This document shows positions 2,804 to 29,027 of a DNA stretch of 32,650 bases, piece after piece. The notes under the pieces are model-generated. The model ran no database searches, was not told where the DNA came from, and was given only the letters and a program-made list of their open reading frames with translations. The DNA is taken from the IMG/VR virus record IMGVR_UViG_3300020442_000004; one strand, written 5' to 3'. Within the stretch, counting starts at the first letter, position 1. Each line of letters starts with the position of its first letter. This DNA is from a virus. Both the position numbers and the translations under genes were made by a program.

Positions 2804-4863
2804 GCAGAATACAACAATACCAAGCCTCTTTTACAGTTGGAGAGATGGATCCTTTATTAAGAGGAAGGGTAGATCTACAACAATATTACAATTCTGTATC
2901 AGAGGCTACTAATGTAATCTTTGAGCCTCAAGGTGGTTTTAGTCGTAGACCGGGATTAAGATTTATACAAGACATAACAGGCGATAGTCCAGAGAATGGA
3001 CATATGCTTATCCCGTTTGAATTTAGTACATCATCAAACTTTATGGTAATTGCATCGGCTACTATAACTACTATGCCTAATGCAAAAATTAGATTTAGAA
3101 TATATAAAGATCAACAACTCATTACTAATATAAATGGATCTGGGGATGATTACTTAGAATATGGTGTCGGAACTTTATATGGAACAACAAGTTTTGATAT
3201 CAATCAAATGTACTATACACAAAGTGCAGATACTTTAATTTGTGTTCATCCTTCCTTTAGACCATTTAGTTTAGTAAGAGGTGCAACAGATAATGATTGG
3301 ACGGCTACAAGTCTTGCCGGATCACTAACAATTCCAAGACACGCTTTTACATTAGTTACTACCAGACCAACAACAACATTAACTCCTAATAAAGTAGACG
3401 GAACAGTTACCCTTACTGCCGGCTCAAGTATTTTTCAAAGCACAGATGTAGATCAGTTTGTTGAAGTAGATGACGGCTTTGGAAGATTAAGGATTACTCA
3501 GTTCATATCTGGTACTGAAGTAAAGGGAATAACAGAAGTTCCTTTTTTTGATACTACTGCTATAGCATCAAATACTTATATTATTGAAAGAGGTTATGAA
3601 GATAGTTGGTCAGATCAGAGAGGGTGGCCGAGGACGGCAACCTTTCACGAAGGCAGATTATATTTTGGTGGATCGGCATCTTTGCCTTCAACATTATTTG
3701 GATCTAAGGTAAATGATTTCTTTAACTTCAAAGCTGCAGAAGGTTTAGACGATGATGCACTAAAGGTTACTTTGGCTACAGACCAAGTTAACTCTATTAC
3801 GGCTCTTAGATCCGGGAGAGATCTCCAGATTTTCACAACCGGTTCCGAGTTCTTTGTACCACAGGGCGATCTAGATCCTATTACACCAAGCAATATTGTT
3901 ATTAAGTCTGCAACAAAAAGAGGAGCAAAGCCTAACATAAGACCACAAGCTGCCGAAGGTGGTACTTTATTTATTCAAAGACAGGGTAAAAGTATAAGAG
4001 AGTTATTGTTTTCTGATGTTGAATTATCTTATGTTGCAAATAACATTTCTCTTTTAGCGTCACATTTAATTGTAGATCCAAAAAGATTAGCACTTAGAAG
4101 AGCTACAGATACTACCGAAGGAGACTTGCTTATGGTCTTAAATGGTACTGATGCATCTGGTTATAGATCTGCAAGTCAAAGTGCTATTGGTGGTATTGCT
4201 GCCTATATGTTAAACAAAGGACAGAACATTGTAGCACCATCTTTATTGGTTACTGATGGTGTTTTTACAGATGTTAGCACAGATCTAGATGACATCTTTG
4301 TTGTTGTTAAAAGAAACATAGGTGGATCTGACAAGTATTTTGTAGAGGTATTTGATGACGACTTCACAACAGATAGTGGTGTTCAAGTTACGAGTGGGTT
4401 CTCCGGAACTACCTATGGAGGACTATCGCATTTGGATGGTAAGTCAGTAGATGTTATTAGAGATGATATAGTAGATCCTAGATCAACTGTATCCGGTGGT
4501 AACTTTACAACATCAATTGCACCAACCTCATATGTAGAAAGTGGTTTACCCTTTACTATAAATGTCGTTACACAATCTGTAGAAACAAGATTGCCTTCCG
4601 GCGTTATCCAAGGAATGAAGAAAAGAATATTAGAGATAACTCCTGTACTTTATAAAACACAAAATATTACAATTAATGGCAGACAAATACCTCTTAACAC
4701 TTACCCGGCAAGTGGGGTGGGAGGAGTATTCAGTTATACAGGAGTAACTAAAACTCCGGGATTTTTAGGTTATAACCAAGAGGCAAGAATAACAATATCA
4801 CAAGACCAACCGGTATTCTTAACTGTTTTGAGTTTAGATTATAAGGTTAGTGTTGGACAATAG
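2800..4863 (+). CDS. Tail tubular protein B / nozzle (T7 gp12-like).
   Basis: 687 aa, overlaps the gp11-like gene by 4 nt. The N-terminal G..DP..R.R.DL..Y...V....N....P.GG.SRRPG pattern resembles podovirus nozzle proteins. Confidence 0.55.
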   Translation: MSRIQQYQASFTVGEMDPLLRGRVDLQQYYNSVSEATNVIFEPQGGFSRRPGLRFIQDITGDSPENGHMLIPFEFSTSSNFMVIASATITTMPNAKIRFRIYKDQQLITNINGSGDDYLEYGVGTLYGTTSFDINQMYYTQSADTLICVHPSFRPFSLVRGATDNDWTATSLAGSLTIPRHAFTLVTTRPTTTLTPNKVDGTVTLTAGSSIFQSTDVDQFVEVDDGFGRLRITQFISGTEVKGITEVPFFDTTAIASNTYIIERGYEDSWSDQRGWPRTATFHEGRLYFGGSASLPSTLFGSKVNDFFNFKAAEGLDDDALKVTLATDQVNSITALRSGRDLQIFTTGSEFFVPQGDLDPITPSNIVIKSATKRGAKPNIRPQAAEGGTLFIQRQGKSIRELLFSDVELSYVANNISLLASHLIVDPKRLALRRATDTTEGDLLMVLNGTDASGYRSASQSAIGGIAAYMLNKGQNIVAPSLLVTDGVFTDVSTDLDDIFVVVKRNIGGSDKYFVEVFDDDFTTDSGVQVTSGFSGTTYGGLSHLDGKSVDVIRDDIVDPRSTVSGGNFTTSIAPTSYVESGLPFTINVVTQSVETRLPSGVIQGMKKRILEITPVLYKTQNITINGRQIPLNTYPASGVGGVFSYTGVTKTPGFLGYNQEARITISQDQPVFLTVLSLDYKVSVGQ

Positions 4864-4875
4864 AAGGAGAGTAAA

Positions 4876-5610
4876 ATGAGTGGATTAGAACCTGTACTTT
4901 TGGCAGCTGCAATCGGAGGAACTGCTTTACAATATATGGCAACTGTTGATGCCGGTAAGGCCGAGAAAGGATTGATGGAGGCTAGAGCTCGTGAGGCAGA
5001 GATCCAAGGTAGAAGAGAGGCAATTAACTATAAAGAAAAAGGAATAGAAGATTTAAAACAACTAAACAAAACTATGGCTACTCTTAATGCCCGTGCCGGA
5101 TCTGGAAATATGAACCCGTACTCTACAGGAGATACAACAGATATTCTTATGGGTTATTCACTTAGAGAGGCAGTAAACGATTTTACAGTAGCCAGAGACA
5201 ATGCAACCATATCAACTCAAATGGGTCAGTTCCAAGCAGCGAATTATAGAGTAGCCGGAGAGAATGCTCTTAGAACTGCTAAGAAAAGTGCAATGGCCGG
5301 AGTGTTTACAAATGTTGCTACTGTTGGATTAACTTATGGGCCTTCTGCTGCCCCAAGTTTATTTCCGAATATGAGTAAGACAACGACAACAAGTGATATA
5401 AGAGCAAAAGAAAACATTAAGAAAGTTGGAGTACATCACGAGACAGGATTGAATTTGTATATGTTTAATTACATTTGGGATAAAACTAAATACATAGGAG
5501 TAATTGCTCAAGAAGTATTAGAAAAATTTCCAAAAGCAGTTGATCATTCAGATCACTTCTTAGCCGTTGACTATAGTGTTCTTGGTCTTGAATTTAAAAA
5601 GGTAGTGTAA
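4876..5610 (+). CDS. Virion protein with a C-terminal peptidase-S74-like intramolecular chaperone domain (possible trimeric needle or plug).
   Basis: The C-terminus TTTTSDIRAKENIKKV...YIGVIAQEVLEKFPKAV...LAVDYSVLG matches the S74 autoproteolytic chaperone signature (S-D-x-R-x-K-x-N-I ... G-x-I-A-Q-E ... V-D-Y). The S74-like part is about 5392-5607. Confidence 0.7.
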   Translation: MSGLEPVLLAAAIGGTALQYMATVDAGKAEKGLMEARAREAEIQGRREAINYKEKGIEDLKQLNKTMATLNARAGSGNMNPYSTGDTTDILMGYSLREAVNDFTVARDNATISTQMGQFQAANYRVAGENALRTAKKSAMAGVFTNVATVGLTYGPSAAPSLFPNMSKTTTTSDIRAKENIKKVGVHHETGLNLYMFNYIWDKTKYIGVIAQEVLEKFPKAVDHSDHFLAVDYSVLGLEFKKVV

Positions 5611-5614
5611 GTCT

Positions 5615-7612
5615 ATGGCAGAGGCAAAGGTATATGAGAGAAGAAGGGTAGGACAACTAAACATACCCCGAATTGATTTCGCTGCAGAACGATCTCTAAT
5701 CCAATCACAAAAACAAATGGCAAATGATCTTGCTGCTATGAATAAATTTGTGTTTGGTCAATTAGAAGGCGTAGTCAAAGAACGAGCAAAAAGATATGGA
5801 GTAGAAAATGCTCCCGGCTTAGAACAACTAGAAGATATATATAACTACAATAGAGGCATTGAAGATGCCAGAGCTATACCGGAAGATCAAAGATCTGATG
5901 AACAACAAGAAATAGCAGAACGAGATCTAAAAAAATTAGAAGGTGTCGGCGATAGCTATAGCGTCTTTGGTAAAACTGCTAAAGCCTTTTATCTTGATAG
6001 TGCTAGTAAGACAATTGAAACTCTTGCTAAAAAAGAAATACTCTCACTTATAACTATAGCCGAGCAGAACGACACTCCATATGCAGATATCAAAGATCAA
6101 TTACAGGATGTTGTTGATGGCTACACAGAGACATTAGCAGATCAAGATCAGTTTGTAGGTAAACTGCTAAATTCAGAATTATCTTTGTTTGCATACTCAC
6201 AGGGCCAGGATTATGCAAGATCAGAATTAGCTAAACTAAGAGATAAAAGAAAAGCAGAATTTACAGTTACCACAGAAACTTTCTTTGAAGGATTGCCTAA
6301 TGAAATTCAATATTTAGTAAATGCAGAAATACTAAGTAAGGAAGGTATAAAAGATAAAGATGGCAAAGTTGTTAAAGATGAAATTGCAATTAGAAGTATA
6401 GTTGGCAACAAAAGAATAGATGACAAGTTTGCCTCTATAATTGCACAGATGCCCGGTCTTGGTTTTAAAAGTCCGGCTATAAGACAGATGCGAGATGATT
6501 TTAATAAAGCAGTTTTAAATGCTCAAATGGTAGTTATTAAAAAACATATGCTTGAGAATGAAAATCCAGAGGTACTTGTAAACAATATTAAGAAGGCTGC
6601 TAAGATTATATCTTCACTTACTAAGAAAGATGGAACTCTTAGAATACCAAGCGATGCACAAAAAAAACAACTAAGTGCAATTCCAAAAGAAGTTGTAAAC
6701 GCTTTAGTCATTGGAGATAGCAATGATACATTAGATATTTTAAAAGCTATAAGAGATGAGAAGAAAGCAGAAAATGAATACAACACTTCTAATCTTAATA
6801 TGGCAGATAAAATTAGAAAAGATAGATCTAGAATTAAAAACAATGATTTTTTTAATTTAAGTCAATCCATTACACCGGATAATGAAAATGATATATTTAA
6901 TCAAATGGAAGTTTTACTAGCTACATATAAATCAGAAGGTCTAGATACAGGCGTTGGAAGTGACTATCAAAAGAATGTACAGGCATTAGAGAACCTAAAA
7001 GCCGGTATACCTATTATAGAAACTGCTACTCAGTTAGATACAGAAATTGCTCTTGTTAATGATCTAAATAGAGAAAACCCAGAATATAACACGGCAGATA
7101 TAAATCTATTGTATAGTGCCGGAACGCTTACAAGAAAAGCATACCTAGAATATTCTAAATTATATCAAGCACAGGGAGATAAAAATTTTAAAGAGGCACA
7201 AGCAATAATCAGAGCTAGAATGGGTATACCTACTAACGCTATCTATGGAGCCGGCGATCTTAAAAAAGGTAAACTAGCAATATACAAAAGATTTGAAAGT
7301 CAACTTTTAAGAAAAAGAGATGAGTTTCAAGGAGAAGGAACCTTTGATGCCGTTGAGTGGGTTACTGCTAATATAGATAACTTTGTTTTTGATACCGATA
7401 AAGAGTTTTATGGAAAAGAATATGCAGAGTTAATGGATTGGGTAAATACAAAAGGGGGTACTAAAAAAGCTGCAGATCAAATGATTGAAAAATTTATTAG
7501 AGATGGCGATCAAGAACAAGCAGACGAATTTAAATCATTTAATAAAAGGATAGCAGATTATAATAAAGCTAATCCTAGAAATATGATACCGGGATGGGAG
7601 CCTAGTCCATAA
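5615..7612 (+). CDS. Internal virion / ejection protein candidate (665 aa, coiled-coil rich).
   Basis: Long ORF in the position of the T7 gp14-16 analogues. Charged, helical composition. No enzymatic motif recognised. Confidence 0.5.
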   Translation: MAEAKVYERRRVGQLNIPRIDFAAERSLIQSQKQMANDLAAMNKFVFGQLEGVVKERAKRYGVENAPGLEQLEDIYNYNRGIEDARAIPEDQRSDEQQEIAERDLKKLEGVGDSYSVFGKTAKAFYLDSASKTIETLAKKEILSLITIAEQNDTPYADIKDQLQDVVDGYTETLADQDQFVGKLLNSELSLFAYSQGQDYARSELAKLRDKRKAEFTVTTETFFEGLPNEIQYLVNAEILSKEGIKDKDGKVVKDEIAIRSIVGNKRIDDKFASIIAQMPGLGFKSPAIRQMRDDFNKAVLNAQMVVIKKHMLENENPEVLVNNIKKAAKIISSLTKKDGTLRIPSDAQKKQLSAIPKEVVNALVIGDSNDTLDILKAIRDEKKAENEYNTSNLNMADKIRKDRSRIKNNDFFNLSQSITPDNENDIFNQMEVLLATYKSEGLDTGVGSDYQKNVQALENLKAGIPIIETATQLDTEIALVNDLNRENPEYNTADINLLYSAGTLTRKAYLEYSKLYQAQGDKNFKEAQAIIRARMGIPTNAIYGAGDLKKGKLAIYKRFESQLLRKRDEFQGEGTFDAVEWVTANIDNFVFDTDKEFYGKEYAELMDWVNTKGGTKKAADQMIEKFIRDGDQEQADEFKSFNKRIADYNKANPRNMIPGWEPSP

Positions 7613-25640: not shown

Positions 25641-26069
25641 ATGGGAAATAGAGTAATACCACCGGTAGGCAGATTTGGAGGGATAGGAGATCTACAGAAA
25701 AGATTACGAGGATCTCAGATCATCTACGAGAACAGGGATGACCTAGCGAGGGTTATGCTTGAAATTGCCTCTGCGAAGATCACAGATATCGTTTCTTGGG
25801 AAAATGGAGTATCTACCCTCAAAGATGTTAAACACATCAATGAGGGAGCTCTAAATGCGATTAAAAGGGTAAAAATTACCCCTACCAAGAACGGGGATGT
25901 CATTGATATAGAAATGGTGGATAAGGTAAGAGTTATGCAAATGCTTGCCAAGTCCTCCGGCTTACTTGATCAAGAGAAGGATGCCGATAAACCGGCAGTA
26001 GTTTCTATTGAGATGGTAATGCCAGAAGAAAAAAAGAAAGGGAAAGCAAATGATACAGAAAACGATTAA
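25641..26069 (+). CDS. terS: Terminase small subunit.
   Basis: The C-terminal half AIKRVKITPTKNGDVIDIEMVDKVRVMQMLAKSSGLL resembles the Terminase_2 (P27-type) small subunit pattern. It lies upstream of terL. Confidence 0.6.
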   Translation: MGNRVIPPVGRFGGIGDLQKRLRGSQIIYENRDDLARVMLEIASAKITDIVSWENGVSTLKDVKHINEGALNAIKRVKITPTKNGDVIDIEMVDKVRVMQMLAKSSGLLDQEKDADKPAVVSIEMVMPEEKKKGKANDTEND

Positions 26070-26301: not shown

Positions 26302-26450
26302 GAAAAAGGTTAATAAAAAAAATAAAAGAGAATAGGTATGAAGTTCTTTGGAATGCTTATCATACCTTAATAGTAATATTACTAGCCGGCATATTGTTGA
26401 TAGAGTTTATGGAGTATGTGAGATATCCGGCTCATTTTTTCGGAGTGTAA
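26298..26450 (+). CDS. Small membrane protein (50 aa).
   Basis: ATGA overlap at 26298. The hydrophobic segment HTLIVILLAGILLIEF is present. Confidence 0.4.
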   Translation: MRKRLIKKIKENRYEVLWNAYHTLIVILLAGILLIEFMEYVRYPAHFFGV

Positions 26451-26451
26451 T

Positions 26452-27489
26452 ATGCATAAACTAAAAATCTTAGATTTATTTTCTGGGATTGGAGGTTTTA
26501 GTTACGCTGCCGAAAGACTTGTAGGTGGGTACGAGACCATAGGGTTCTGTGAAAAAGATAATTTTTGTAAAAAAGTTCTCAGAAAACATTGGAAGGATGT
26601 ACCCATCTATGACGATATAAGGAGATTGGATGCAAGAAAAATTAAAGCAGATGTCGTTGTTGGAGGGTTCCCTTGTCAACCGGTGTCACAAAGTGGAAAA
26701 AGAGAGGGAGCAAAAGATGATCGTTGGCTCTGGGATGAGATGCTTAGAGTTATACAAGATTGTAAACCCAGATGGATCATTGGAGAAAATGTGCCGGGCA
26801 TTGTTAACATTGACGATGGGGATCTATTCCAGAAATTGTGCATTGACTTGGAAAACTACAACTACGAAGTACAATCGTTTATTGTTCCGGCTTGTTCCCA
26901 AGATGCACCACACCGAAGAGACAGAGTTTGGATTGTTGCCTACTCCGACAACCCAAGATACAGAACACCCCAATATGATTTTGAACGAGAAAGGCAGAAG
27001 GGAACCGACCAAGGGCAAGAGCAGTCACTCTTTGAATTTAGCAGACAGAGTGAAGATGATGTGGCCGACACCGAATGCTTGGGATGGACAGAGAGGCCCA
27101 AGATCCGAGAAACATCTACAGGAGAACAAGGGATCTCAAACAACTTTAGTAACGGCAGTAGCACACAATCAAAGAATGTTTCCTACTCCTACTCAAGACA
27201 TAGTAACAGACAGAACCAAGAAATACTCTCAAGGAGGTACGCCGTTAACACTAGCGATAAAAGACCCAACCCAGAAAGTAGAAGGGAACTTGAATTACGA
27301 ATGGGTAACTTGGTTAATGGGTTACCCCAAGAACTATCTGGACATTTCCGAGAAGAACCAGAAGGAGTTCCAAGAGTTGCCACAAACCAAAAAGAAAGAT
27401 CTCAAAAGTTGAAGGCGTTGGGAAATAGTATAGTACCTCAAGTCGCTGCAGAATTTTTTAAAGCAATAATAATACAGGAAAGATTATGA
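26452..27489 (+). CDS. DNA (cytosine-5)-methyltransferase, uninterrupted frame-1 ORF (345 aa). The middle third is low-complexity in this frame.
   Basis: Motif I LDLFSGIGGF, motif IV GGFPCQPVS, motif VI IIGENVPG, motif VIII QDAPHRRDRVWIVAY, motif X KALGNSIVPQVA. See the finding about the +1-frame TRD. Confidence 0.85.
   Translation: MHKLKILDLFSGIGGFSYAAERLVGGYETIGFCEKDNFCKKVLRKHWKDVPIYDDIRRLDARKIKADVVVGGFPCQPVSQSGKREGAKDDRWLWDEMLRVIQDCKPRWIIGENVPGIVNIDDGDLFQKLCIDLENYNYEVQSFIVPACSQDAPHRRDRVWIVAYSDNPRYRTPQYDFERERQKGTDQGQEQSLFEFSRQSEDDVADTECLGWTERPKIRETSTGEQGISNNFSNGSSTQSKNVSYSYSRHSNRQNQEILSRRYAVNTSDKRPNPESRRELELRMGNLVNGLPQELSGHFREEPEGVPRVATNQKERSQKLKALGNSIVPQVAAEFFKAIIIQERL
26903..27412 (+). 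CDS. +1-frame ORF inside the methyltransferase gene that encodes the recognisable target-recognition-domain motifs. This frame is open from 26621, with in-frame ATGs at 26630 (the ORF-track start) and 26903.
   Basis: The frame-2 translation contains FGLLPTPT (26927-26950), MWPTPNAWD (27059-), MFPTPTQD (27176-) and EWVTWLMGYPKNY (27302-27340). These are hallmarks of phage C5-MTase variable regions and the motif IX region. How it is expressed is unknown. Confidence 0.45.
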   Translation: MHHTEETEFGLLPTPTTQDTEHPNMILNEKGRREPTKGKSSHSLNLADRVKMMWPTPNAWDGQRGPRSEKHLQENKGSQTTLVTAVAHNQRMFPTPTQDIVTDRTKKYSQGGTPLTLAIKDPTQKVEGNLNYEWVTWLMGYPKNYLDISEKNQKEFQELPQTKKKDLKS

Positions 27490-29027
27490 CAGAAAAAAAT
27501 TTTAAAAACACGCCCTCTACATTAAAGTTTGATTTTAGTTCTGCTCCTACTATAGCAAAGTTTATGGGATCTAAATCCTTTATCCGAGGACTAATGGGGC
27601 CAGTTGGATCTGGAAAATCTTACGGGTGTTGTGCAGAAATTTTAAAGATGGCTTTATCCCAAAAGCCTAGTCCAAGAGATGGCATAAAGTATTCTAGATT
27701 TGCTATCGTAAGAAACACACATCCAATGTTAAGAACAACTACTTTAAAAACTTGGCTTGAATTACTACCAGAAAATTATTGGGGCAATGTTAAATACTCT
27801 CCTCCAATAACTCATCATATAAAATTACCGGCAAGAGATGGAGCAGCCGGCGTAGATATGGAAGTTATCTTTCTTGCATTAGATGACGCTAAAGATGTTA
27901 GAAAGCTCTTATCTTTAGAATTAACCGGTGCTTGGATCAACGAGGCGAGAGAACTCCCGGTTCAGATTATACAAGGTTTGTCTCATCGTGTGGGCAGATA
28001 CCCTACCAGATCTGATGGTGGCCCATCGCAATATGGGATTATACTTGATACGAATAGTATGGATGATGATCATTGGTACTACAGATATGCAGAAAAAGAA
28101 AAACCTAAAGGAAAATTTTCTTGGGAGTTTTTTAAACAACCAAGTGGCGTTTTAGAAATACCTCATTCAAAAGTTCCTCAAGATATGCCAGAGGCACAAG
28201 GATATTATTTTGCATCGGGTAGATGGTGGAAAACAAATCCTCAAGCAGAAAATTTAAAAAACCTTCCGGATGGATACTATGAACAATTACTTGGAGGAAA
28301 AAGTTTAGATTGGATCAGATGTTATGCAGAAGGTAAATATACTTTTGTAAAAGAAGGAAAGAGTGTATGGCACGAGTTTGATCCGGAAACTATGATTGGA
28401 GAAGAACTAGATCCAGATCCAAAGTATCCTGTTAATATAGGATTAGACTTTGGACTTACTCCGGCTGCCGTATTCGCCCAGAGAATGCCTAATGGTAGAT
28501 GGCACATACTTCACGAGTTAGTTACATTTGATATTGGATTAAATAGATTTGTATCTTTGTTAAAGTCAGAAATGGAATTGTACTTTCCAAAATTTAAATT
28601 CAATGTATGGGGAGATCCGGCAGGGAACCAGAGAGATCAGATCTACGAGACTACTGCATTCCAACATTTAAATGCAAATGGTATCTTAGCTCGTCCAACA
28701 AATACAAATGATTTTAGAACTAGAAGAGAGGCCGGAGCCATACCAATGACAAGATTGATAGAAGGCAAGCCGGGATTAATTGTTTCTAAAAAATGTACTC
28801 AATTAATTAAATCATTAAATGGTGGGTATCATTTCCAAAGAGTTATGAAGGGATCTGGCACCGAGGTCTACAAGGATCAACCCGTAAAAAATAATCACTC
28901 ACATATTGGAGATGCATTTGGTTATGCACTATTAGGAGGAGGAGAACATAAAAGGATGGTAAGCAGAGCCGGTCAATTTGGTAATCAACAACAAGCAAGG
29001 GTATTAGATTTTGATGTTTTCTCTTGA
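27486..29027 (+). CDS. terL: Terminase large subunit.
   Basis: Walker A GPVGSGKSYGC, FAIVRNTHPMLRTTTLKTW, and a nuclease-half pattern with conserved acidic residues (GLDFG, GDPAG, HIGDAFGY). Confidence 0.9.
   Translation: MTEKNFKNTPSTLKFDFSSAPTIAKFMGSKSFIRGLMGPVGSGKSYGCCAEILKMALSQKPSPRDGIKYSRFAIVRNTHPMLRTTTLKTWLELLPENYWGNVKYSPPITHHIKLPARDGAAGVDMEVIFLALDDAKDVRKLLSLELTGAWINEARELPVQIIQGLSHRVGRYPTRSDGGPSQYGIILDTNSMDDDHWYYRYAEKEKPKGKFSWEFFKQPSGVLEIPHSKVPQDMPEAQGYYFASGRWWKTNPQAENLKNLPDGYYEQLLGGKSLDWIRCYAEGKYTFVKEGKSVWHEFDPETMIGEELDPDPKYPVNIGLDFGLTPAAVFAQRMPNGRWHILHELVTFDIGLNRFVSLLKSEMELYFPKFKFNVWGDPAGNQRDQIYETTAFQHLNANGILARPTNTNDFRTRREAGAIPMTRLIEGKPGLIVSKKCTQLIKSLNGGYHFQRVMKGSGTEVYKDQPVKNNHSHIGDAFGYALLGGGEHKRMVSRAGQFGNQQQARVLDFDVFS

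Follow-up and report, generated by a model that had tools for sequence, protein, structure and literature searches.

Nested same-strand reading frames in a phage C5 cytosine methyltransferase locus probably encode a two-polypeptide enzyme

A methyltransferase gene with a second open reading frame inside it

The IMG/VR virus record IMGVR_UViG_3300020442_000004, a single stretch of 32,650 nucleotides that was analysed as a whole and is referred to here as the window, contains a C5 cytosine DNA methyltransferase locus in which two long open reading frames (ORFs) lie on the same strand, one wholly inside the other (Table 1). The outer ORF, which we call alpha and whose frame we take as frame 1, is preceded by GGAG at 26442-26445. 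The inner ORF, beta, lies in the +1 frame, which is open from the TAA upstream of the beta ATG up to a TGA at 27410-27412. In the entire window, beta is the only same-strand ORF of at least 110 amino acids (aa) that is fully contained within another ORF. The +1 frame also holds a further ATG at 26903 and the sequence CAAAAAG at 27388-27394.

Table 1. Features of the nested methyltransferase genes, with positions counted along the window.
Feature	Position	Strand	Remarks
Alpha gene	26452..27489	+	345-aa ORF in frame 1; motifs I-VIII, spacer, motif X; predicted catalytic subunit
Beta gene, nested in alpha	26630..27412	+	260-aa ORF in the +1 frame; N-domain, three PTP-box modules, motif IX
Upstream stop of the beta frame and Shine-Dalgarno sequence	26618..26624	+	TAA 26618-26620 overlapping AAGGAG 26619-26624, 5 nt before the beta ATG
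Alpha N-terminal catalytic domain	26452..26940	+	FSGIGG, GFPCQ, ENV, PHRRDRVWIVA; M.HhaI match
Zone of strongest double constraint	26812..26940	+	Alpha codons 121-163, equivalent to beta residues about 62-104
Beta PTP-box modules, putative DNA-recognition part	26933..27286	+	Boxes LLPTPT 26933-26950, WPTPN 27062-27076, FPTPT 27179-27193
Alpha spacer	26941..27339	+	Low-complexity, S/N/Q/R/E-rich; stop-free read-through of the beta modules
Beta motif IX region	27287..27349	+	NLNYEWVTWLMGYPKNYLDIS; includes WLMGYP 27311-27328
Alpha C-terminal segment with motif X	27340..27486	+	GHFREEPEGVPRVATNQKERSQKLKALGNSIVPQVAAEFF...; invariant columns; confident C-terminal helix

Domain content of the two products

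Alpha is readily recognised as a C5 methyltransferase. It matches Pfam PF00145 (E 4.5e-50, 171.4 bits against a cut-off of 22), TIGR00675 (3.8e-41, 141.8 bits against a cut-off of 100.65) and, among the PHROG families, phrog_363 (1.4e-71). Motif I (FSGIGG), motif IV with the catalytic Cys (GFPCQ), motif VI (GENV), motif VIII (HRRDRVWIVA) and motif X (LGNSIVPQV) are all encoded in frame 1 and are invariant in the family. The only part matched among solved structures is the N-terminal one, where alpha residues 4-171 correspond to M.HhaI residues 12-178 (E 5e-19). In the AlphaFold model, residues 1-165 are confident (predicted local distance difference test score, pLDDT, about 85-92), as is a C-terminal helix at residues 327-344, and residues 170-325 are predicted to be disordered (pLDDT 24-43). 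The modelled N-domain superposes on the large domain of M.HhaI (Foldseek 8e-13, 163 columns).

An alignment of 21 relatives shows high conservation in the N-terminal 165 residues and in the last ~50, where H298, F299, E302, P303, P307-V309 and L323-V331 are invariant columns. The middle is of low complexity and very variable in length, and the alpha relatives range from 267 to 545 aa among the matches listed. Between motifs VIII and X, where a one-chain C5 methyltransferase would have its recognition domain and motif IX, the alpha chain has neither. The large domain of M.HhaI consists of its N-terminal part together with the motif X helix, and the small domain, made up of the recognition domain and motif IX, sits in between; alpha can therefore be described as a large domain with a spacer in place of the small domain. 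As modelled, alpha is the catalytic large domain of a C5 cytosine DNA methyltransferase, and its middle is a spacer predicted to be disordered.

Beta matches phrog_1008, annotated as "DNA methyltransferase", over nearly its full length (1.3e-25). It has no match in Pfam or NCBIfam, neither of which has a model for the beta family. Homologues of beta number 546 in a database clustered at 90%, and the family comprises 41,737 cluster representatives (50% identity, E up to 0.001), in nearly all of which the match begins at residue 1. A preliminary description of this locus, made from the letters alone, had named as supporting evidence profile matches of frame 1 confined to its two ends and of the +1 frame over the variable region; among solved structures frame 1 was matched at residues 4-171, and the +1 frame was matched by phrog_1008 and by no model of Pfam or NCBIfam.

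The N-terminal part of beta follows the pattern S..EDS.A..S...M..TSG.KC.E...GLL.KM..LL.S..AWYS..C.LTWK.K.TKS.RLLFQL. It is followed by modules of ~40 aa, variable in number, each of which opens with a PTP box. The PTP itself is nearly invariant in the beta-family alignment (A4), and the number of boxes ranges from 1 to 4 or more across relatives. At the C-terminal end, the family consensus GG.LNP.WVEWLMGYP.GYTD aligns to the motif IX peptide of M.HhaI, KLHPRECARVMGYPDSYKV (hhalign E 6e-4, probability 28%), and this region is the best-predicted part of the beta AlphaFold model. The N-terminal part of beta probably docks onto alpha, and the PTP-box modules probably read DNA.

Module number varies very widely across the beta family. 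One relative (P0269, 660 aa) has about a dozen LLPTP modules in a beta to which a motif X segment (KAYGNAICPQV) is joined in frame. In three loci (L044, L067 and L069) and in protein P0323, additional PTP-box modules precede the conserved beta N-domain; the N-terminal alpha match of L044 and L067 spans about 590 nt, compared with the usual about 480. This arrangement suggests that modules can also sit in an insertion of alpha upstream of motif IV.

The two-frame layout is conserved among relatives

To avoid selecting for open frames, we picked 80 IMG/VR loci solely by the N-terminal 163 aa of alpha; 75 loci, the window included, were complete. In 72 of these 75, motif X lies in frame 0, and the PTP boxes lie together with an LMGFP motif in frame +1. 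In the same 72 loci no stop interrupts the +1 frame over at least 101 codons upstream of where motif VIII ends, and the +2 frame closes within 0-36 codons. Beta is nested in 70 of the 72, ending 8-137 nt ahead of the alpha stop. The scan with the N-terminal part confirmed at least 574 relatives, and a search with the 345-aa product pointed to thousands (at least 8000 candidates). Three further contigs encode a 345-aa protein that is 99% identical to alpha (P0001). In the Paenibacillus phage Leyra, both nested coding sequences are annotated in GenBank, as gp61 and gp62, and nesting, in each case in the +1 frame, is also found in a Bacillus plasmid 'dcm' and a P. polymyxa plasmid gene (L086, L087) and in the gut contig and Acinetobacter phage described below. 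Phages and prophage-like elements from several groups of bacteria very commonly have this layout, which annotation largely misses.

Of two nested ORFs, gene callers retain just one. Alpha therefore enters databases as a full 'dcm' gene, and beta either disappears or looks there like an orphan hypothetical protein. On a 163-kb human gut metagenome contig (L081, 4859-6154 for alpha and 5001-6077 for beta), the caller kept beta (P0214, 358 aa, no Pfam match) and dropped the 431-aa alpha. The opposite choice was made for the Bacillus and Paenibacillus plasmids (L086, L087), for which RefSeq keeps alpha. The existence of beta-like proteins as free-standing genes was considered and ruled out, given that P0214 sits within an uncalled alpha ORF. 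In the Acinetobacter phage vB_AbaM_ABMM1 (OQ471969; L088, 954-1868), the +1 ORF (958-1854, 298 aa) begins 4 nt past the alpha start and covers 298 of the 304 codons of alpha, so that almost the whole gene is double-coded; alpha alone is annotated.

Both frames are kept open by selection

Neither frame is open by chance, and both openings are selected. The +1 frame has 159 codons from 26933 to 27409, of which 29 have T as their last letter and 55 start with AA, AG or GA. Not one of these 55 is preceded by a T-ending codon; independence of the two features would predict about 10 frame-1 stops. Shuffling synonymous +1-frame codons over the middle of the gene left frame 1 open in 1 of 2000 trials (0.05%), with 7.6 stops expected and 0 seen. 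When frame-1 codons were shuffled in the same way over the last 100 codons of the N-domain of the window, the +1 frame stayed open in 0 of 2000 trials (4.3 stops expected). The third frame of the window closes after a few codons. Across the relatives, the alpha middle is stop-free in 71 of 75 loci, for which a mean of 6.5 stops is expected, and the +1 frame is stop-free over the last 100 codons of the alpha N-domain in all 81 of 81 loci (3.4 stops expected). The first ~54 alpha codons hold a mean of 3.9 +1-frame stops.

Substitutions are distributed differently along the gene. We computed rates per alpha codon position in closely related pairs, alpha position 1 being beta position 3. In the alpha-only N-terminus the rate is 0.028 at alpha position 1 and 0.156 at alpha position 3. 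In the first part of the overlap the position 3 rate is halved, to 0.084 (position 1, 0.031), and over the last 43 codons of the N-domain the two rates are similar (0.060 and 0.072). The middle has 0.103 at position 1 and 0.034 at position 3, and the alpha-only C-terminus 0.064 and 0.128, respectively. Counted by beta codon position, the substitutions in the middle number 13, 14 and 87 at positions 1, 2 and 3, i.e. 87 of 114 are at beta third positions. Purifying selection acts on both frames, and in the middle it acts on beta. Over the whole family, the synonymous codon diversity of alpha is 0.56 where alpha is alone, 0.23-0.25 at codons 121-150 and 0.28 at codons 298-320, and it is back to 0.56 past the beta stop. 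From these substitution and diversity patterns it follows that alpha coding predominates in the N-terminal part, where the beta frame is kept open, that about 40 codons are truly double-constrained, that the middle is beta-coded with alpha merely kept open, and that the end is alpha-coded again.

These results agree with several statements of the preliminary description. The frame-1 ORF at 26452..27489, the +1 frame open over 26621-27412 and all motif coordinates that it gave proved correct on direct reading and against the ORF list. Its hand count of 55 codons starting with AA, AG or GA, none of them after a T-ending codon and with about a fifth of codons ending in T, is exact (29 of 159). 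Its view that selection rather than chance keeps the second frame open is supported by the codon shuffle, in which frame 1 stayed open only once in the 2000 trials. The comparison with homologues that it had proposed likewise found both frames open across the family and the synonymous diversity of alpha reduced in the overlap (0.23-0.25 against 0.56).

A separate start signal for the nested frame

In most loci the beta ATG stands 0-4 codons past its upstream stop and about 101-117 codons ahead of the end of motif VIII. A Shine-Dalgarno core of at least 4 nt precedes the beta ATG in 50 of 72 loci, compared with 19% of control positions and 25% of other in-frame ATGs. In the window the start signal consists of the AAGGAG listed in Table 1, a gap of 5 nt, and the ATG at 26630, from which we infer, on the strength of these sequence signals, that beta is translated. 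The ATG at 26903 was ruled out as the beta start, the frame being open and constrained well upstream of it. The preliminary description had named a separate frame-2 polypeptide starting at 26903 as one of its options; the separate polypeptide is the supported reading, with its start moved to 26630, where the ATG and Shine-Dalgarno sequence are conserved. More generally, that description had left a choice between recoding and dual coding. Dual coding, with both frames selected to stay open, is supported, and recoding is not.

Recoding in this case would mean a double programmed frameshift, +1 near 26930-26940 and -1 after motif IX, yielding one chain with the motif order I-VIII, target recognition domain (TRD), IX and X, maybe beside an unshifted product. 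This would restore the motif order of a one-chain C5 methyltransferase; it is also in line with the frame of motif IX being that of motif X plus one, constantly across relatives, and with the presence of the A-rich CAAAAAG. We nevertheless consider it very improbable. RVWIVAY (26921-26941) and LLPTPT share 9 nt, and because their codons overlap on the DNA, a single chain carrying both is impossible. In all 81 of 81 loci the +1 frame is open, with an ATG and a Shine-Dalgarno sequence, for about 100 codons upstream of the proposed shift and is selected there, for which a frameshift has no use; a shifted frame without a start of its own, open only from the shift site, as expected of a programmed frameshift, was not seen in the loci studied. 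Frame 1, moreover, does not terminate past the 'shift site' but stays open. As for the return to frame 1, a canonical X_XXY_YYZ slippery heptamer is found after motif IX in 1 of 63 loci and nowhere in that part of the window, and CAAAAAG is not conserved among relatives. Conserved frame-1 sequence (GHF..EEPEGVPRVA) begins already at about 27340, upstream of CAAAAAG. When a chimeric one-chain sequence (alpha N-domain, beta modules with motif IX, alpha C-terminus) was used as query, no one-chain relative was found, and all matches scored lower than they did against the true alpha, except for a few frame-fused variants without motif VIII or X (P0379, P0392). The +1 shift near 26930-26940 put forward in the preliminary description is thus not supported, given the upstream opening of the +1 frame and the motif overlap, and its -1 return at C_AAA_AAG comes too late, given that the return is needed by about 27340, at a site that is not conserved. 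Two isoforms, or a specificity controlled by frameshifting, are likewise not supported, beta having its own start signal and the heptamer being present in a single locus.

Two other explanations call on a pair of compensating indels. If these had displaced the recognition domain in evolution, alpha alone would be made and the +1 frame would be a decaying, unexpressed remnant. RefSeq and gene callers do usually annotate just alpha, which clears the Pfam and TIGRFAM thresholds by itself. A remnant, however, should gain stops and lose its third-position bias; instead, all loci have an open +1 frame, the middle shows most of its substitutions at beta third positions (87 of 114, as given above), and the beta start with its Shine-Dalgarno sequence is conserved. 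In addition, since the alpha middle is unconserved and predicted to be disordered, alpha alone would be without a small domain. We regard this explanation as very improbable. The indels might, on the other hand, have been introduced by sequencing or assembly into an ordinary one-frame gene. Against this, the layout is present in 72 of 75 independently assembled relatives chosen regardless of layout and in finished genomes of cultured phages and plasmids, and the near-identical 345-aa protein occurs on 3 other contigs. The artefact explanation is effectively refuted.

A probable nested two-polypeptide methyltransferase

The direct observations, namely the ORFs with their motifs, the selection for openness in each frame, the frame-specific substitutions, the conserved start signal and the conservation of the layout, fit best with nested same-strand genes for a two-polypeptide C5 DNA cytosine methyltransferase of the M.EcoHK31I kind, a reading that we hold to be very probable. 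Alpha would be read straight through in frame 1 from 26452 and would supply the large catalytic domain, with motif I for binding S-adenosylmethionine, GFPCQ with its catalytic Cys, ENV, motif VIII and the helix of motif X, all joined by a disordered spacer. Beta would be made from the same mRNA region in the +1 frame, with ribosomes starting independently at a Shine-Dalgarno sequence and ATG of its own, and would supply the small domain, comprising the N-terminal docking part, the three PTP-box modules and motif IX. The alpha frame would stay stop-free across the beta modules solely to keep motif X covalently attached to the catalytic domain. Alpha and beta would then assemble into an active methyltransferase, and methylation of the phage DNA would presumably protect it from restriction by the host. 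That the two chains associate, that the PTP modules are the recognition element and that the enzyme has an anti-restriction role are the steps that we infer from this arrangement.

Several points weigh against the two-polypeptide reading. The translation of alpha and beta in this phage is a prediction from the gene sequences. The AlphaFold model of beta by itself is of low confidence (pLDDT 53), with its fold and its docking on alpha being predictions, and the beta profile gave a chance match only among PDB sequences, with no significant solved relative. The motif IX assignment combines a pattern with a short hhalign match at 28% probability. The exact position of the beta start is deduced from its signals, and internal Met starts are known in M.EcoHK31I. 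Finally, in five relatives (L063, L076, P0123, P0379 and P0392) the frames are joined in other ways, which may reflect single-nucleotide assembly errors, pseudogenes or genuine variants.

A broader proposition, to which we would give an even chance, is that the locus exemplifies a very large and mostly unannotated class of C5 methyltransferases in phages and prophages, made up in every case of nested alpha and beta genes. The recognition subunit would be written in the +1 frame, and beta would account for no fewer than 41,737 clusters at 50% identity. If this is true, specificity would change by gain or loss of PTP-box modules in beta, with alpha reading through them as a stop-free spacer, and many database 'dcm' entries would be incomplete enzymes by themselves. 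M.EcoHK31I would belong to the class as an unexceptional member, and the assignment of its recognition domain to alpha would have to be reconsidered. As a conserved overlap between same-strand genes, this one would also rank with the longest and most widespread in DNA phages.

Relation to known systems

M.EcoHK31I of E. coli, which recognises YGGCCR, is a heterodimeric C5 methyltransferase whose beta gene lies wholly within the alpha gene in another frame (PMC2836561). Its alpha chain carries motifs I-VIII and X together with the TRD, its beta chain carries motif IX, and both chains are required (PMC2836561; PMC3404938). N-terminal deletions of its beta weaken the association, and internal Met codons can also start beta (PMC2836561). 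The likeness to the window is one of architecture: in both, beta is fully inside alpha in another frame, alpha has motifs I-VIII as well as X, with motif IX in beta. Unlike M.EcoHK31I, for which the recognition domain is placed in alpha (PMC2836561; PMC3404938), the window has its putative recognition modules in beta, with the corresponding region of alpha being a predicted disordered spacer. The window element also differs in being an orphan phage gene beside terminase genes, with no restriction-modification pair. Among the plasmids matched, there were no enterobacterial ones.

An annotated parallel in layout is the gp61/gp62 pair of the Paenibacillus larvae phage Leyra (NC_048692), with a 345-aa alpha and a 234-aa beta in the +1 frame. 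It has in common with the window the motifs EDTLANLS, TSGQK, LTWK and LLFRLVPS, the PTP boxes and LNPEWVECLMGFPIGWTD, although the window beta is only about 30% identical to that of Leyra. The paper on P. larvae phage genomes lists two methyltransferase genes without discussing the overlap (PMC6070908). In the literature searched, we found no account of nested methyltransferase genes in phages or of how widely they are distributed.

M.AquI, which the preliminary description had cited as an example of a split enzyme, is indeed a natural two-polypeptide split of a C5 methyltransferase (PMC3404938); M.EcoHK31I is the closer parallel, its beta gene being wholly inside alpha. Motifs IX and X of M.AquI both belong to its small subunit, and its large subunit ends in the variable region, whereas in the window motif X is in the alpha frame and beta is nested, stopping at 27412. 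An AquI-like layout is present in two relatives, P0171 (L083) and P0269, in which beta is fused in frame to motif X and alpha ends after motif VIII. M.HhaI and M.HaeIII resemble the window in their catalytic large domain, and their small domain is the piece that has moved to beta; unlike the window, they are one chain in one frame, and their recognition domain has no detectable similarity to beta. Programmed frameshift genes such as dnaX and the phage tail chaperone G/GT are similar to the extent that two frames of one locus feed protein products. In contrast to these, the window has no conserved slippery site, its zero frame is open, and its second frame has its own start.

Should alpha depend on beta, the methylation and anti-restriction capacity of phages would be wrongly predicted from alpha alone, and specificity would have to be read from beta. 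For studies of gene evolution, the locus is a clear example, open to testing, of dual coding over a long stretch: the frame that dominates changes from one part of the gene to the next, and one frame is, in part, selected only for openness. As a naturally split enzyme, M.EcoHK31I has served as a platform for targeted methylation, and the present family would offer many more pairs.

Genomic neighbourhood and unusual relatives

The methyltransferase locus lies between a weak match to a terminase small subunit at 25641-26069 (phrog_51, E 7e-4) and a terminase large subunit gene, terL, at 27486-29027 (phrog_2). The alpha stop and the terL start share the ATGA at 27486-27489. At 32.65 kb and 37.9% G+C, the window probably represents an almost complete phage genome, as the contigs of relatives measure 32.8-33.5 kb. 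A megablast search of GenBank phages with 6 kb around the gene gave no match, and the phage is therefore not a known one.

Among the frame-fused relatives noted above, either the N-terminus of alpha is joined to beta, or the alpha spacer continues as the beta modules, in which case motif X is no longer in frame. L063 and L076 still obey the rule that the frame of motif IX is that of motif X plus one. The locus of the AquI-like relative P0171 (L083, 3202-4795, on the ENA contig k141_400148) is unusual in other respects. Between motifs III and IV of its alpha ORF (3433-4305), the third frame holds an ORF for an HNH endonuclease (3489-4001, PF01844), and the alpha frame is open through it, for 290 codons. 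Motif I is on a separate small ORF (3202-3348). The alpha ORF ends immediately behind motif VIII, and motif X is joined in frame to beta (3998-4795). In a further subgroup of IMG/VR loci (L012, L014 and L016), motif X of alpha (RVHRLKALGNSIVP) shares nucleotides with the beta tail just past motif IX (GYPAEYTDLKHWG), and two conserved motifs overlap directly.

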